Below are positions 55,376 through 62,229 of a DNA stretch of 64,000 nucleotides, piece by piece. The notes under the pieces are model-generated. The model did no database searches. It was not told the origin of the DNA and was given only the letters and a program-made list of their open reading frames with translations. The stretch's first letter is position 1. Every line of letters starts with the position of its first letter. The stretch comes from an uncultured Lachnospiraceae bacterium (GTDB lineage: Bacteria > Bacillota > Clostridia > Lachnospirales > Lachnospiraceae), in contig CASYOT010000002.1 of assembly GCA_949484645.1 (NCBI GenBank), positions 2,912 through 66,911 of the forward strand, given 5' to 3'. The position numbers and the translations under genes were made by a program.

Positions 55376-55408
55376 GTAAATAATGATAGAATCGGATAAG
55401 TATTAGAA

Positions 55409-55458
55409 ATAGCGTATTTTATTTATATTTTGATAAATAAAATACGCTATTTTTTTCT
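55409..55458 (+). terminator. rho-independent terminator ending the island operon
   Basis: Inverted repeat aaatagcgtattttattta / taaataaaatacgctattt followed by T7. Confidence 0.7.
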
Positions 55459-55872: not shown

Positions 55873-55974
55873 TGTGTTCGGGAAAGGGAAGTTTTTAAGT
55901 CGTTTTTATTGTATTTGACAGATGTTTTGGCATATGCTATTCTTGTCATAGAAAAACTGCATAAGAATCTTCAG

Positions 55975-56140
55975 GGCAGGGTGACTTTGCAAAGCAGGGG
56001 ATTCCCTACCGGTGGTAAAGCCCACGAGCCGCAAGGCATGATTCGGTGACTCTTATCAAACGGCAAAAGTCGGATAAGCGGGATTCCGAAGCCGACAGTA
56101 TAGTCTGGATGAAAGAAGGTAAATGTCGTATCGTTTTTAG
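55975..56140 (+). ncRNA. FMN riboswitch (RFN element) aptamer
   Basis: Conserved RFN blocks: cagggcagggtga...ggattccctaccggtggtaaagcccacgagcc...gattcggtga...cggcaaaagtcggata...gggattccgaagccgacagtatagtctggatgaaagaagg; lies upstream of ribD. Confidence 0.85.
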
Positions 56141-56207: not shown

Positions 56208-56245
56208 TGGGAGAACCGGCTCTGAAATAGATTGTTTCAGCGCCG
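56208..56245 (+). terminator. riboswitch expression-platform terminator
   Basis: Hairpin ccggctctgaaa-tagattg-tttcagcgccgg followed by T6, between the aptamer and ribD. Confidence 0.65.
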
Positions 56246-56354
56246 GTTTTTTGATGGCAGAGTTTTTGCGCAAGCCAGAGTTTTTGCGCAAGCCAGAGTT
56301 TTTTTGACAGGGCAGTGTTTTTTGGGGATTGAAAAAGGGAAGGGAAGTGACAAG

Positions 56355-57455
56355 ATGGAAGATAGGGACTATATGCGGATTGCAATAAAAGAAGCAAAAA
56401 AGGGAGAAGGCTTTACGAATCCAAATCCGATGGTTGGGGCCGCGCTTGTGAAAGACGGGCGGGTAATTGGCAAGGATTTCCACCATAGATACGGTGGATT
56501 CCATGCTGAGCGGAATGTAATTTTAAATTGCAGGGAGCCTGTGGAGGGAGCAAAACTTTATGTGACATTAGAGCCATGCTGTCATTATGGAAAAACGCCG
56601 CCCTGTACGGATATTATCATTGAAAGTGGCATTCGGGAGGTATATATTGGCTCAATGGACCCAAATCCGCTTGTCGCGGGAAAAGGCGTAAAGCAGTTAA
56701 AAAAGCATGGCATAAAAGTTGTGACGGGCGTTTGCGAAGCGGAGTGCCTAGAACTTAACCGCGTGTTTTTTCATTATATAAAACATAAAACGCCCTATGT
56801 TATCATGAAATATGCGATGACGGCTGATGGGAAAATTGCGACGCGGACGGGAAAGTCAAAGTGGATTACTTCAGAAGCTGCCAGAGGACGCGTTCAGGAA
56901 AGCCGCCATAAATATATGGGGATTATGGCAGGGGTTGGCACTGTGCTTTTGGACAATCCGAGATTAACGTGCAGATTGGAAGGGAAAAGAAGTCCGGCGC
57001 GGATTATTTGCGATACGCATCTGCGGACGCCGCTTACGGCAGAAGTGGTACAGACGGCGCGTGAGATTCCGACAATTCTTGCAACGGCAGAAACAGACAG
57101 TAAAAAGATGGAGCCTTATCATGCAAAGGGGGTTCAGATGCTTGCCGTTCCCTTAGAAGGGGAAAGACTGGATTTAAAAATCTTAATGCAAAAATTGGGC
57201 GAACAGGGGATCGACAGTATATTGTTGGAAGGCGGGGCAATACTGAATTATAGCGCATTAAAAAGCGGGATTGTCCATGCGGTTGAGATGTACATTGCGC
57301 CGAAACTGTTTGGCGGGACACAAGCGAAAACGCCCGTGGAAGGGCTTGGCGTAGAACTGCCGGATCAGGCGTTTCAACTGTGTGATCCAAAGATTTCCCA
57401 GATCGGGGAGGATATTTTAATTGAATGGAAGGTGGGTGTATGTTTACAGGAATAA
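56355..57455 (+). CDS. ribD: bifunctional riboflavin biosynthesis deaminase/reductase RibD
   Basis: MEDRDYMRIAIKEAKKGEGFTNPNPMVGAALVKDG...HAERNVILNC...TLEPCCHYGKTPPC deaminase zinc motifs, then reductase domain; start set to ATG 56355 (the track start 56232 would run through the terminator). Confidence 0.9.
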   Translation: MEDRDYMRIAIKEAKKGEGFTNPNPMVGAALVKDGRVIGKDFHHRYGGFHAERNVILNCREPVEGAKLYVTLEPCCHYGKTPPCTDIIIESGIREVYIGSMDPNPLVAGKGVKQLKKHGIKVVTGVCEAECLELNRVFFHYIKHKTPYVIMKYAMTADGKIATRTGKSKWITSEAARGRVQESRHKYMGIMAGVGTVLLDNPRLTCRLEGKRSPARIICDTHLRTPLTAEVVQTAREIPTILATAETDSKKMEPYHAKGVQMLAVPLEGERLDLKILMQKLGEQGIDSILLEGGAILNYSALKSGIVHAVEMYIAPKLFGGTQAKTPVEGLGVELPDQAFQLCDPKISQIGEDILIEWKVGVCLQE

Positions 57456-58078
57456 TAGAAGAAATCGGCACAGTGCGGAGGATTGGATCGGGCAGAATCC
57501 ATATTCGGGCAAAAACGGTTTTAGAAGGCGTGAAAATTGGGGACAGTATTGCCGTTAATGGGGTTTGCCTGACGGTGACGGAATTGGGCGCGGATTTTTT
57601 TGCCGCAGACGTTATGCCGGAGACTTTTCAGAGAAGCTCTTTGGGAAAGCTTAAGACGGGAAGCGGCGTGAATTTAGAGCGGGCGATGGCGGCGGACGGA
57701 CGGTTTGGCGGGCATATTGTTTCCGGACATATTGATGGGACGGGGAAAATCCAGTCTATTACAAAAGACGGGAATGCGGTCCGTTACCGGATTGACACAT
57801 CGAAAGAGCTTTTGCGTGGGATTGTGGAAAAAGGGTCGGTGGCTGTAGACGGCATTAGCTTAACAGTTGCCGCAGTGGCATCGGATTGGTTTGAACTTTC
57901 GGTGATTCCCCATACGCTTCATGAGACGGTTTTGGAGAAGAAACGGATAGGGGAAATTGTGAATCTGGAAAATGATATGATCGGAAAATATGTAGAGCGG
58001 CTGTTGTCTTTGAATCAGGAAGAAGAAAAAAAGCCGTCTGCGTTGACAAAAGAATTTTTGCTTCGGGCAGGATTTTAG
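57440..58078 (+). CDS. ribE: riboflavin synthase alpha subunit
   Basis: [12 protein letters not shown]...two lumazine-binding repeats ([13 protein letters not shown] / [12 protein letters not shown]). Confidence 0.9.
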
Positions 58079-58089
58079 GAGGGAAAAAC

Positions 58090-59295
58090 ATGCAGGCATT
58101 TAGTTCGGTGAAAGAAGCGTTAGAAGATTTAAGGCAGGGAAAAATTATTCTTGTCACAGATGATGAGGATAGGGAAAATGAAGGGGATTTTATTTGCGCG
58201 GCGGAATTTGCGACGACGGAAAATGTTAATTTTATGGCGATGCATGGCAAAGGGCTGATTTGTATGCCGATGGGGAAGGCGCTTGTGGAAAAATTAATGC
58301 TTCCGCAAATGGTTTCGAATAACACGGATAACCATGAAACGGCGTTTACGGTTTCGATTGATGCGGTGGAAACGACGACAGGGATTTCAGCGAAAGAGCG
58401 TGGGATTACCGCCAGAAAGTGCGTCGATGAAAACGCCGTTCCTGAGGATTTCAGAAGGCCGGGGCACATGTTTCCGCTTTTAGCGAAAAAGAACGGCGTG
58501 CTGGAGCGTAACGGGCATACGGAAGCGACAGTCGATTTGATGCGGCTTGCGGGATTAAAGGAATGCGGCTTGTGCTGTGAAATTATGCGGGAAGACGGAA
58601 CGATGATGCGGACAGAGGAATTGATGGGTCTTGCGAAAGAATTTCAAATTAAGATGATTACGATTCAGGCAATTCAGGAATACAGGAAAGTGCATGAAAA
58701 GCTGGTAGAGGAAGTTGCAATTACGAAAATGCCGACGCGTTATGGGGAGTTTTTGGCGCATGGGTATGTCAACCGCTTAAATGGAGAGCATCATGTGGCA
58801 TTGGTAAAAGGAGAGATTGGAGACGGAGAGCATTTGCTTTGCCGCGTCCATTCGGAGTGCTTGACGGGCGATGCGTTTGGCTCGATGAAGTGTGACTGTG
58901 GGCAGCAGCTTCAATCGGCGATGAAGCAAATTGAAAAAGAAGGCCGTGGGATTTTGCTTTATCTGCGGCAGGAGGGCCGCGGGATTGGGCTTATCAATAA
59001 ACTTCGGGCGTATGAATTGCAGGATCGGGGAATGGATACGGTGGAAGCGAATTTGGCGCTGGGCTTTGAGGAGGATTTGCGGGAGTATTATATTGGGGCG
59101 CAGATTCTCAGGGATTTGGGCGTAAAAAGTTTGCGGCTTTTGACAAATAATCCGAAGAAGATTGACGGCCTTTCGGAGTTTGGGCTTAGCATTGAACAAA
59201 GAGTGCCGATTCAGATGGAGCTGACGCCGTTTGATGCGTATTATATGAGGACGAAGAAGAAGAAGATGGGGCATATGTTGGAGGGGGAGTTTTAG
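58090..59295 (+). CDS. ribBA: bifunctional 3,4-dihydroxy-2-butanone-4-phosphate synthase / GTP cyclohydrolase II
   Basis: [16 protein letters not shown] synthase motif; C-terminal GTP cyclohydrolase II with [21 protein letters not shown] zinc motif. Confidence 0.9.
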
Positions 59296-59678
59296 CGGAC
59301 GCTGCCCAGCAGATACAATTTTCCGCTGGGAGCGCTTTTGCTTGTTGACGCTCGCAGCGGCGCTAAGACGCCAAAATACGGCGTCTAAGAGCCGGCGGCG
59401 TCAAGAATCCCTGCGGCTAATTGTATCTGCTGTTCATCTGGCATTGGGGGACGGTAGGTTTGGTGGGCATTAATGGGTATTGGGTTAGGGAGGAATTTCA
59501 TGTTGGAAAGCGGGGGCTTGTGTTTGAAGCGCAGTGTAGTGGGGGTTGAATAATGGAGAATTGGACTATGGCAGGTTTAGTTTTGGGAAACTGGCTGGTT
59601 TTATCTGCTGTTTAACGGGGGATTGACGGACGGTAGGTTTAGGCGGCTGTAAAATAATAGTTAAGGAGATGGAATGAG

Positions 59679-60146
59679 ATGAATGTATTTGAGGGAAAGA
59701 TTGTTGCGAAGGATATTAGAATTGGGATTGTGGTGGCTAGGTTTAATGAGTTTATTACGGATAAGCTTCTGGGGGGAGCGGTTGACGGGCTTAAGAGGCA
59801 TGAAGTGTCTGAGGATTTGATTGATGTGGCTTGGGTTCCGGGAGCGTTTGAGATTCCGTTGGCGGCGAAGGCTATGGCGGAAAGTGGAAAGTATGATGCG
59901 GTGATTTGTCTTGGCGCGGTGATTCGGGGGGCGACTTCACATTATGATTATGTTTGTAGTGAGGTTTCGAAGGGAGTCGCTCAGGTGGCGCTTCAGTCGG
60001 GGCTTCCGGTGATGTTTGGCGTGTTGACGACGGATACGATTGAGCAGGCGATTGAGCGCGCAGGAAGCAAGGCTGGCAATAAGGGATTTGACTGTGCGAC
60101 GGGCGCGATTGAGATGATTAATTTGCTGCGGGGGATTCGCGGTTAG
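59679..60146 (+). CDS. ribH: 6,7-dimethyl-8-ribityllumazine synthase
   Basis: [33 protein letters not shown]...VPGAFEIP lumazine synthase signature; 155 aa. Confidence 0.9.
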
Positions 60147-60321
60147 TGGGTGTTTGGAAATGAAATCAGGCATTCTTTTGCTTTTGGGCAGGAGGATGCC
60201 TGATTTATTTTTGGGTTTATTGTAAACTTATTTTTGTGATTGGTTGACAATCTGGAAGGGGTATTATAGAATTGGAAATGGATATTATGGAGGGGAGGGG
60301 TATGGGACGATGGGTTTATCG

Positions 60322-62229
60322 TTTTATAGTGTGAAAATGAGGGCAAGTGAACAGGGAAAGCATATTTCAGGGGCGGAGCGTCTTGTTTTGGAGCGGGAAG
60401 TGGACGTTTGCGTGGAGCAGATGCTTGGGCGTGGGCGGAATCATTCGAAGGGGAAGGCGGATTTGCTGAATATTAAAATGGAAAAGATTGAGGAGAATGA
60501 GATTTTATATTTGGATACACTTCCGGTTTCTACGGTTGAAGTGAAGGATTTCAGAGACGGGCTTAAGGAAGTCAGAAATTGTTTGTTGGAATTGGGGATT
60601 GTGAACGTAGAGGGGATCTTGGGGCGTTTGCCGGAAACGTATGCGATGCGTGGGGCTATGTTGTTAGATGTGGATACGCTGAAACGGTTAGAGCCGGACA
60701 GGGAGCGTGGGGTTAGGGCTACTTATATGGACGGAGTAAGGACGGGGGAAGCTGTTTTTACGAAGGGGAAACATCATTTTCAAGAGGCGGTTGTGCTGGC
60801 GGCGAAGGTGGCGAATGCGCCGAATATTATTGGGGAAATTTGTATTTCGGACGATCCGGATTATGTGGCGGGGTATGTCGCATCGAAGGTGTTTGGGTAT
60901 CGGCGGATTACGAAAGTGAAGGAAGCTGGAAGTGAATTGGGCGGGAGGATTTTTTTGTATCGGGGGCGGGAGGAGGATGTGGCGGAGACGGTTGGCTTTT
61001 TGGAGCATCAGGCTGTGCTTGTGAGGAATGCGCCGGAACTTTTTTCGAGGAACCATAGCGAGGGGAAGTTTGGGTTTCTTAATGAGGAGCTTAAACGTCT
61101 GCGGGAGGATTTTTTATTTCGGAGTATGAAGACTATGCAGTCTGCGCAGTCCTCGTCGGTTTTATGTGATGGAAGGCGTGTGCTTTTGCTTGCTTCAAAT
61201 CATTATTTGGATTTGGCCCGCCGTAAGGATGTGAAGGAGTCTGCGGAGCGGGCGCTTGACTTGTATGGAACGGGTTCGGGAGGTTCGCGGCTTACGACGG
61301 GCAATACGGTTCTGCATGAAAAATTGGAAAGCAGGATTGCAGAGTTTAAAGGGGAGGAGTCTGCGCTGCTGTTTAATTCGGGTTATGTTGCGAATCTTGC
61401 CGCAATTTCTGCGCTTATGGGAAAAGGGGACGTGATTTTCAGTGATGAATTAAATCATGCGAGCATTATTGACGGCTGCCGTCTAAGCGGGGCGGAGATT
61501 GTAATATACCGGCATAATGATATGAGGGATTTGGAGCAAAAGCTGGCCAAGTGTCCGTTTCGGAGGGGGCTTGTGGTGAGTGATGCGGTGTTTAGCATGG
61601 ACGGGGATATTTTAAATCTGCCGGAGTTTGCGCAGCTTGCGGATCGGCATCAGGCGTTGTCGATGGTAGATGAGGCGCATTCGACGGGAGTGATTGGAAG
61701 GACGGGGCGTGGGATTGTGGAGCATTATCATGGCGTATGCAGGCCGGATATTTTGATGGGGACGCTTAGTAAGGCGATTGGCAGTGAAGGCGGGTTTGTT
61801 TGTGGGAGCAGGGCGCTGACGGAATTTTTAAGGCACAAGGCTCGGGGGTTTGTCTTTTCCACTTCACTTTCTCCGGCTGTGGCGGCGGCTTCAATTCAGG
61901 CGCTTGAGGCATTGGAGGAGAATCCGCAGTTGGTTTTAAGGCTTAGGGAAAATGTGTTGTTTTTTTGTGGCTGTTTACGCGAGGGAGGGATTTTGGCTGA
62001 TTCAAAAAGCGCGGTGATACCGATTATGATTGGAGACGAGAAAAAGGCGATTGAGATTTCGGAGGAGCTTTTTTCGGAAGGGTATTTTATCCCTGCAATT
62101 CGTTACCCTACAGTGAAAAGAGGGAGCGCAAGATTGCGGGCGGCGCTTATGTCGGAACATTCGAAAAAAGATCTTAGGGAAGCGGCAGAAGCAATTTTGA
62201 GAGTGTGCGGAAAATATGGGATTGTATGA
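60322..62229 (+). CDS. bioWF: fused 6-carboxyhexanoate-CoA ligase (BioW) / 8-amino-7-oxononanoate synthase (BioF)
   Basis: N-terminal about 250 aa FYSVKMRASEQGKHISGAERL...SDDPDYVAGYVASKVFGYRRITKVKE matches BioW; C-terminal about 390 aa LLLASNHYLDL...GSGGSRLTTGN...FNSGYVANLAAIS...TLSKA matches BioF; single uninterrupted ORF. Confidence 0.75.
   Translation, partial: FYSVKMRASEQGKHISGAERLVLEREVDVCVEQMLGRGRNHSKGKADLLNIKMEKIEENEILYLDTLPVSTVEVKDFRDGLKEVRNCLLELGIVNVEGILGRLPETYAMRGAMLLDVDTLKRLEPDRERGVRATYMDGVRTGEAVFTKGKHHFQEAVVLAAKVANAPNIIGEICISDDPDYVAGYVASKVFGYRRITKVKEAGSELGGRIFLYRGREEDVAETVGFLEHQAVLVRNAPELFSRNHSEGKFGFLNEELKRLREDFLFRSMKTMQSAQSSSVLCDGRRVLLLASNHYLDLARRKDVKESAERALDLYGTGSGGSRLTTGNTVLHEKLESRIAEFKGEESALLFNSGYVANLAAISALMGKGDVIFSDELNHASIIDGCRLSGAEIVIYRHNDMRDLEQKLAKCPFRRGLVVSDAVFSMDGDILNLPEFAQLADRHQALSMVDEAHSTGVIGRTGRGIVEHYHGVCRPDILMGTLSKAIGSEGGFVCGSRALTEFLRHKARGFVFSTSLSPAVAAASIQALEALEENPQLVLRLRENVLFFCGCLREGGILADSKSAVIPIMIGDEKKAIEISEELFSEGYFIPAIRYPTVKRGSARLRAALMSEHSKKDLREAAEAILRVCGKYGIV

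Follow-up and report, generated by a model that had tools for sequence, protein, structure and literature searches.

A foldback repeat of gut Lachnospiraceae as the probable origin of a long ribBA–ribH spacer

The 383-nt spacer that separates ribBA from ribH in the rib operon studied here is an insertion relative to close relatives and not an ancestral rib regulator. It probably consists of one intact copy (about 59296–59473) and one truncated or decayed copy (59593–59652) of a non-coding chromosomal foldback repeat that resembles MITEs and REPINs, has multiple copies in this species as well as in other gut Lachnospiraceae, and would be carried as a passenger in the rib mRNA. Positions are those of the window, by which we mean the whole 64-kb stretch of DNA that was analysed. 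The repeat family is apparently undescribed and unannotated; whereas the rib-operon copy is ordinary in its consequences, the family has unusual properties.

The rib operon and its spacer

The operon comprises the following features:

55963–56124, + strand, FMN riboswitch aptamer in the rib operon leader (Rfam RF00050, 82.1 bits against a gathering score of 66.2)
56232–57455, + strand, ribD
57425–58078, + strand, ribE
58090–59295, + strand, ribBA, 401 aa, 5' of the insertion (ORF; Pfam DHBP_synthase and GTP_cyclohydro2 on the identical gene in L001)
59296–59678, + strand, spacer between ribBA and ribH, 383 nt
59679–60146, + strand, ribH, 155 aa, 3' of the insertion (ORF; Pfam DMRL_synthase)
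60163–60206, + strand, intrinsic-terminator-like hairpin and T-run at the operon end (terminator scan)

The ribBA stop codon (TAG) occupies 59293–59295. Along the operon, the plus strand carries an extreme excess of G over C (skew 0.3–0.9) that falls to about zero at 59300–59450 only, as expected because this segment is self-complementary. No promoter-like sites were found within the spacer, and the terminator scan listed no terminator in 59296–59678; a second FMN riboswitch or a terminator in the spacer was rejected by the Rfam and terminator scans.

Structure of the spacer

Within the spacer, we distinguish the following parts:

59296–59306, + strand, 11-nt leader before the hairpin (7/11 match to the same position in the purN–purD copy, which is weak; the L220 insert has a 13-nt leader)
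59307–59432, + strand, foldback hairpin, 126 nt, intact copy of the repeat family (inverted repeat, folding, model R1, purN–purD identity)
59333–59342, + strand, conserved bulge in the left arm only, CGCTTTTGCT (family consensus CGCTYYCGCT; alignments A2 and A3)
59356–59396, + strand, conserved apical core: AGCGG-CG-CTAAG, variable stem-loop (GACGCC AAAATAC GGCGTC), CTAAG-AG-CCGGC (pattern that retrieved the family; near-invariant columns)
59433–59473, + strand, 3' tail of the element with GGACGGTAGGTTT (L102 paralogue similar up to 59461; GGACGG-AG-TTT motif placed alike in L102 and L220)
59474–59592, + strand, G/T-rich filler (in-register alignment z = 1.9–2.4)
59593–59652, + strand, apparent partial second copy, right arm and tail (direct repeat of 59415–59473; nhmmer match at 59599–59643, E = 0.029)
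59653–59678, + strand, native ribH translation-initiation region with AAGGAG at 59663–59668 (alignment with the short spacers in relatives, ending in ..ATAAAGGAGATGTTGGAG ATG)

A preliminary description of this DNA had pointed to a 14-bp inverted repeat after ribBA, and indeed CAGCAGATACAATT at 59307–59320 recurs as its exact reverse complement at 59419–59432. There are no other exact matches in the 64 kb, and no shuffle reached four matches at up to two mismatches. The full hairpin arms are 25 nt long (59307–59331 and 59408–59432) and 88% complementary. Both nested palindromes described there are present: TTGACGC at 59345–59351 pairs with GCGTCAA at 59398–59404, and the innermost one, TAAGACGCC-AAAATAC-GGCGTCTAA, lies at 59364–59388, although its 'ggcgtctta' arm has one mismatch. 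The long imperfect hairpin, put at about 130 nt, spans 126 nt (59307–59432) and folds as RNA with −74.9 kcal/mol, compared with −43.7 ± 3.5 for shuffles (z = −9.0); folded as DNA, the opposite strand gives z = −8.9. Its 3' flank reads TTCATCTGGCATTGGGGG and has no U-tract, and we therefore conclude that the hairpin does not terminate transcription. An intrinsic terminator or attenuator was rejected, as no U-tract directly follows the window hairpin.

The 12-bp direct repeat, GACGGTAGGTTT, does occur twice, but at 59450–59461 and 59629–59640 rather than near 59445 and 59622. Both occurrences lie inside a longer direct repeat of about 60 nt (59415–59473 and 59593–59652, 75–78% identical), which would be the right end of the element in duplicate. 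Tentatively, the intervening filler (59474–59592) might be the decayed left part of a second tandem copy. The covariance model and nhmmer detected nothing at 59474–59592, and a tandem-repeat search of the tail gave nothing significant. That the second unit is a tandem copy decayed over its full length is weakly supported (z about 2), and we keep this reading as tentative.

At its 5' side, the 11-nt leader is possibly part of the inserted unit, to judge from its alignment with the other copies. Compared with relatives, window ribBA has an extra GGGGAG (Gly-Glu) ahead of its last codon (59278–59295; LEGEF* vs LEF*). The 11-mer GGAGGGGGAGT at the ribBA end also ends purN (L102:9840–9857), just 5' of the purN–purD copy, which may be a coincidence or part of the inserted unit.

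Comparison with the rib operons of relatives

We surveyed the ribBA–ribH gap at 80 ribH loci, one genome per species. In 75 other species it mostly measured 0–100 nt and exceeded 383 nt in two only, which agrees with the expectation that ribH normally lies close behind ribBA. The gap is 16 and 26 nt in the two closest genomes, and 27, 51 and 16 nt in metagenomic relatives with 90–93% identical RibBA; over the nearest relatives as a whole (RibBA 88–93% identical), it ranges from 16 to 51 nt. The spacer is thus not conserved, as an ancestral attenuator might have been.

A related hairpin was found directly after the ribBA stop in the P0005 lineage (L086, L087). Its arms differ from those of the window hairpin, the common core being CGCTCGCAGCGG..CTAAG.CGC.AAAA.AC.GCG.CTAAG..CCGGCGGCG, and the window and L086 hairpins differ by compensatory changes. 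Nine of nine Logan contigs with a P0005 RibBA end within the foldback hairpin (L086:3213, L087:3019). The element thus breaks short-read assemblies and will be under-represented there.

L220, a complete contig of the L086/L087 lineage, has a spacer of 258 nt, compared with 27 nt in the sister lineage L082. Alignment of this filled and this empty site reveals a 231-nt insert within a T6 run, composed of a 13-nt leader, a 136-nt hairpin and a tail of about 80 nt. Sites are filled in L220 and L086 and empty in L082–L085, i.e. the element is present or absent between close lineages. The L220 and L082 lineages are 90% identical in ribBA DNA, with the window as outgroup at 83%. On the resulting tree, ((empty, filled), window-filled), one gain and one precise loss are equally parsimonious as two gains. 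Any target-site duplication at L220/L082 amounts to at most 2–4 T within the T6 run, which is indistinguishable from none, and the other family copies checked showed no consistent duplication either. Together, the short gaps in relatives, the filled and empty sister pair and the copies elsewhere bear out the earlier suggestion of an inserted MITE- or REP-like element.

The other suggestion made at that stage, a large regulatory RNA structure or attenuator, found no support. A rib-specific cis-regulator (attenuator, processing site or second flavin-responsive element) might tune ribH against ribD-E-BA, and the very stable hairpin does lie inside the operon, co-oriented with transcription and directly after the ribBA stop; the other copy in this species is likewise co-oriented in a biosynthetic operon. 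However, apart from the L086/L087 lineage, 90 other genomes, close relatives included, lack the element in their rib operons, and the covariance model R1 introduced below gave no match on 90 other rib loci except L001, L086 and L087. Moreover, the same element occurs at unrelated loci, has neither a U-tract nor, for the window copy, an Rfam riboswitch match, and shows an orientation across the family that is unlinked to transcription direction. We thus consider a rib-specific regulator very improbable and largely refuted already.

Two further arrangements were seen at rib loci. L214 was tried as a within-species empty site and rejected, its downstream ribH being only 75% identical to the window. 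Through ribD-E-BA, L214 matches the window at 99.8% identity as far as 59282, 13 nt before the ribBA stop; from there on (L214:4193–4839) it switches to a 36-nt spacer and the 75%-identical ribH. Either the strain is recombinant, or the assembly, at 4x coverage, is chimeric. In some P0005-like strains (L219:1070–2824, L221:379–2133, L222:245–1999), an insertion sequence with a 584-aa DDE transposase (DUF772/DDE_Tnp_1) lies inside the foldback-element tail, 176 nt 5' of ribH, and what lies upstream of it is not ribBA. Either these loci have been rearranged, or the assembly was joined across the insertion sequence.

A purN–purD copy in the same species

Another copy of the element lies in L102 between purN and purD, in the order purE-purM-purN-element-purD, i.e. 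inside a biosynthetic operon and co-oriented with it. PurN and PurD of L102 correspond to MCI9427517 and MCI9427516 ('Eubacterium sp.'), and window RibBA to MCI9426183, which carries the same label and an accession of the same series. L102 is thus from the same species as the window, a Lachnospiraceae MAG labelled 'Eubacterium sp.'

The window and L102 copies have 83% identity over 59307–59461, which covers the hairpin and 30 nt of tail. In their stems, 44 pairs are identical and five have changed on both sides, with no one-sided change and no broken pair, so that five of five stem substitutions are compensated within one species. This is an unusually clean case of concerted arm evolution, and such arms could be used for studying the upkeep and movement of bacterial palindromes. 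L102 and L220 carry the GGACGG-AG-TTT tail motif at matching positions, and the window has it twice; from this recurrence, the mobile unit of this subfamily would be the hairpin plus tail, of roughly 180–230 nt. Only two copies are documented in the window species, which counts against the reading as a mobile repeat.

As a side observation, the purN–purD spacer 3' of the element (L102:10040–10360) contains five to seven degenerate direct repeats of about 40 nt (TATTTGWGTRAYGGGAGTTTATTTGATAAGAG), each of which echoes the tail motif GAYGGNAGNTTT.

Size and hosts of the repeat family

The proposal to look for further copies outside the rib operon was rewarded well beyond purN–purD. A relaxed pattern, AGCGGNNCTAAGN{13,27}CTAAGNNCCGGC, run on the metagenome collection retrieved at least 123 copies on at least 120 contigs, almost all from gut metagenomes and with many different flanks. 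The covariance model R1, built from 90 copies, found at least 102 copies at E < 1e-6 in at least 84 sources, with scores of 36–101 bits. About 17 of the R1 copies are additional to those through which the contigs had been retrieved, a density of about one in 50 kb. In total, more than 130 copies are present in gut metagenome contigs, with unrelated flanks and too small to encode a protein. According to the neighbouring proteins, the carriers belong in or near Coprococcus, Blautia-like Lachnospiraceae, Clostridium sp. TF06-15AC, Eisenbergiella-like bacteria and 'Eubacterium sp.'

On the 64-kb window, R1 gave exactly one significant match (59314–59428, 80.6 bits, E = 4e-24), and searches for further copies there with blastn, nhmmer and the covariance model with filters off returned only the one copy and the partial repeat. 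No copy was found in phage, plasmid and IMG/VR collections with the spacer, a consensus-like copy and four patterns as queries. Rfam 15 lists no such family: the window copy had no match at E ≤ 10; among 28 other copies searched (E ≤ 0.1 for 8, E ≤ 1 for 20) only the L102 copy matched anything, and no searched copy reaches an Rfam threshold. A literature search by core sequence and by topic yielded nothing relevant on the family.

Anatomy of the family and upkeep of pairing

Family foldbacks measure 120–325 nt, and some (L127, L187, L188) have about 125–140 almost perfect base pairs. Variable, complementary arms surround a conserved asymmetric apical core, CGCTYYCGC ... GCAGCGGTACTAAG-variable stem-CTAAGGACCGGCG. 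In the alignments, conservation of the family centres on the hairpin apex and not on the termini. This is where the likeness to MITEs proposed in the preliminary description needs refinement: the element is an inserted repeat, but its conservation is not terminal as in a classical MITE. Features that the search pattern did not select, and that are nevertheless common to all pattern copies, are a CGCTYYCGC bulge on the left arm, YGC ahead of AGCGG, G behind CCGGC, and complementary arms. The near-invariant core columns include conserved A.G and A.A mismatches, and the 2-bp mini-helix of the left-arm bulge covaries (GC 92/AU 5 and CG 85/UA 10). The apical loop is AAAATAC in the window, mostly AAAATAC-like in the family, and AAAGGAC or ACAGGAC in some copies.

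From copy to copy the arm sequences change, yet double substitutions preserve their complementarity. Over the R1 alignment, 93.1% of cells are paired, compared with 78.4% in shuffles, and 358 cells carry double changes, compared with 118 in shuffles (0/500 shuffles) and 30–81 in slid controls. Between L164 and L188 we counted 21 double changes against 5 broken pairs. Among arm mismatches, G.T exceeds A.C (227 vs 138), with a ratio of about 2:1 in both gene-relative orientations; as this excess is independent of gene direction, one specific strand appears to fold. The strong covariation and the G.U bias would fit a functional RNA too.

Arms also differ between subfamilies, and in several loci the outermost pairing is locus-specific yet self-complementary, which simple cut-and-paste does not explain. 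Hence a small core might insert into pre-existing palindromes or create inverted duplications of its flanks. Such a mechanism would account for the self-complementary flanks that each locus has beyond the region common to paralogous copies, as well as for the nested copies and the partial CTAAG-hairpin-CTAAG modules inside other copies. It sits poorly with the long arm stretches that different loci have in common across unrelated flanks (319 nt in L127/L187, 157 nt in window/L102), and with the L220 insert, which brings its own arms to a site where the empty allele has no palindrome. We consider it improbable.

One subfamily of 300 nt, named here after GGATAAAC (L103, L110, L127, L137, L187 and related loci), has left arms strongly rich in pyrimidines and right arms rich in purines. 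The ends of this subfamily are conserved (ACTCAAACTTCGCACATGCC ... GGCATGTGCGAAGTTTGAGT), and its loci show no evident target duplication.

Genomic setting of the copies

Family copies are intergenic. Among the matches listed, 35 copies between co-directional genes are co-oriented with them and 30 opposed, 11 lie between convergent and 7 between divergent genes; GC skew in motif orientation is positive for 48 copies and negative for 47. There is thus no orientation bias with respect to gene direction or GC skew among the copies listed. Clustering of 615 neighbouring ORFs returned ordinary housekeeping families only, and a conserved neighbouring gene as partner of the element was rejected on these grounds. 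Within 4 kb of any copy we found no transposase or parent insertion sequence, which counts against a mobile repeat, and saw no RAYT or other HUH gene among the neighbours.

Inverted pairs of copies 230–380 nt apart occur. Inverted pairs or nested copies were seen at L161:63–524, L117:4544–4973, L157:2551–3047, L108:2130–2603 and L126:718–1933, and copies or partial CTAAG-hairpin-CTAAG modules were observed nested inside other copies. Pairing and nesting suggest insertion near or into existing copies.

Relation to known elements

REPs (repetitive extragenic palindromes) and REPINs, which are inverted doublets of REPs, belong to Proteobacteria and are mobilised by RAYT transposases, Y1 HUH enzymes whose genes are flanked by REPs. 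Bacterial MITEs include bcr1 of the Bacillus cereus group, RUP of pneumococcus, Correia elements and the 127-bp ERIC palindromes. In function, REP/REPIN, ERIC, bcr1 and other bacterial MITEs would be the nearest analogues of the family, which is set apart from them by its conserved apex, very long concerted arms, confinement to chromosomes and hosts.

Like REPs and REPINs, the family is non-coding, extragenic and multi-copy, forms imperfect hairpins in both orientations, often within operons, keeps its pairing by compensatory change and includes inverted pairs. In contrast, its unit of 120–325 nt with stems of up to about 140 bp is much larger than the 20–40 or about 100 nt of REP/REPIN; its conserved sequence lies at the apex and not in a pair of REP units at the ends, we recognised no REP head of the GTAG type, and its hosts are Lachnospiraceae. 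With MITEs the family has in common a size of about 100–300 nt, the lack of an ORF, inverted-repeat arms, an intergenic and often A/T-rich target inside transcription units, and variable presence among relatives. Unlike insertion-sequence-derived MITEs, however, it is not conserved at its termini, which counts against the mobile-repeat reading; its arms diverge freely between subfamilies yet stay paired, neither a parent insertion sequence nor a defined target-site duplication was found for it, and no copy turned up in the plasmid, phage and viral collections searched.

Two other assignments were tried and rejected. Integron attC sites carry R''/R' boxes (RYYYAAC/GTTRRRY) at the hairpin base and occur in arrays beside cassettes; the family has CTAAG/CTAAG and not CTAAC/GTTAG, and its copies are solitary between housekeeping genes. 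An IS200/IS605-derived (PATE-like) element, whose orientation would follow the replication strand, was dismissed because orientation is not tied to local GC skew (48/47) and no TnpA/TnpB genes lie nearby; IS605-type Rfam motifs matched none of the copies searched.

The closest relation to a described RNA concerns TwoAYGGAY, a motif of gut Clostridiales of unknown function that was rated 'probably RNA, not cis-regulatory' (PMC2864571) and has been proposed as a CsrA binder or sponge (PMC4333381). The L102 copy aligns end to end with the TwoAYGGAY model RF01731 at 35.5 bits, below the gathering threshold of 43, whereas no TwoAYGGAY match was obtained for the window copy (E ≤ 10), for 7 copies at E ≤ 0.1 and for 20 copies at E ≤ 1. 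A genuine TwoAYGGAY RNA (L141:460–626, 123.5 bits) lies 270 nt 3' of the family copy L141:74–188, and both hairpin families thus coexist in the same genomes. They resemble each other in habitat and hosts, in a long, poorly conserved outer stem around a conserved interior and in the absence of a consistent gene association; they differ in that our family has one apical hairpin flanked by CTAAG and not two hairpins with AYGGAY loops. A CsrA-sponge role for the tail or loops was rejected, GGA not being a family-level feature.

The copies could accordingly be functional genes for a structured non-coding RNA, an sRNA or protein-binding RNA of the TwoAYGGAY kind, of which the rib copy would be one that became embedded in an operon. 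The strong covariation, the conservation of loops, bulges and non-canonical pairs, and the excess of G.U over A.C on the motif strand whatever the direction of the host gene all speak in its favour, as do the L102 alignment and the neighbourhood in L141. Against it, the copies have no conserved flanking promoter or terminator and no U-tract after them, fill intergenic gaps in operons in either orientation, and occur at high density, nested and in inverted pairs. Furthermore, near-perfect duplexes of 100–140 bp are atypical for functional sRNAs, the apical loops are mostly AAAATAC-like without a GGA motif, and the window copy has no Rfam match. On balance, we judge an RNA gene class unlikely and favour the mobile foldback repeat.

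Possible spread and consequences

We assume that the foldback repeat spreads in trans, like MITEs and REPINs, through a folded single-stranded form of the motif strand. A protein might recognise the conserved apex, in which bulges and mismatches are fixed, and arm complementarity could result from selection for folding, from template switching or conversion inside the palindrome, or from both. The rib-operon copy would be a passenger co-transcribed from the FMN-riboswitch promoter; its hairpin of −75 kcal/mol presumably does not terminate transcription, and ribH would keep its own Shine-Dalgarno sequence. The long duplex may nevertheless act as an RNase III or stability determinant between ribBA and ribH and so uncouple ribH from ribD-E-BA levels, although a selected regulatory role is not needed to explain the rib copy.

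A bolder and rather doubtful idea is that the family represents an undescribed class of element in dominant human-gut Lachnospiraceae. Its members would be foldbacks whose apex forms an asymmetric, conserved recognition module (a CGCTYYCGC bulge, an AG bulge, A.G and A.A mismatches at fixed places, and a variable tip between CTAAG flanks) and whose arms, of up to about 140 bp, are homogenised in concert. A hairpin-specific recombinase or nuclease that acts on single-stranded DNA might propagate them or make use of them, or they might serve a function as long double-stranded RNA hairpins. TwoAYGGAY could then be a sister family of such a foldback class.

For the window, reading the long structured gap in an FMN-riboswitch operon as a passenger repeat, and not as a second layer of riboflavin regulation, removes a false lead. 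More generally, the family is abundant in the Lachnospiraceae lineages named above, where it can mislead screens for non-coding RNAs and puts very stable hairpins inside biosynthetic operons.

Neighbourhood of the operon

Some observations concern the DNA on either side of the rib operon. The region between the FMN riboswitch and the gene upstream of it contains an A/T-rich hairpin of 20 bp with perfect pairing and a T-run behind it (55406–55453). This hairpin is likely a terminator; it attracts spurious microRNA-family matches in Rfam. Beyond the rib terminator, a near-consensus promoter-like site is found at 60244–60272. The next gene (60310–62229) encodes a 639-aa product with BioW (PF03744) and class I/II aminotransferase (BioF-like) domains, and a BioD-like gene comes after this BioW/BioF-like fusion gene.
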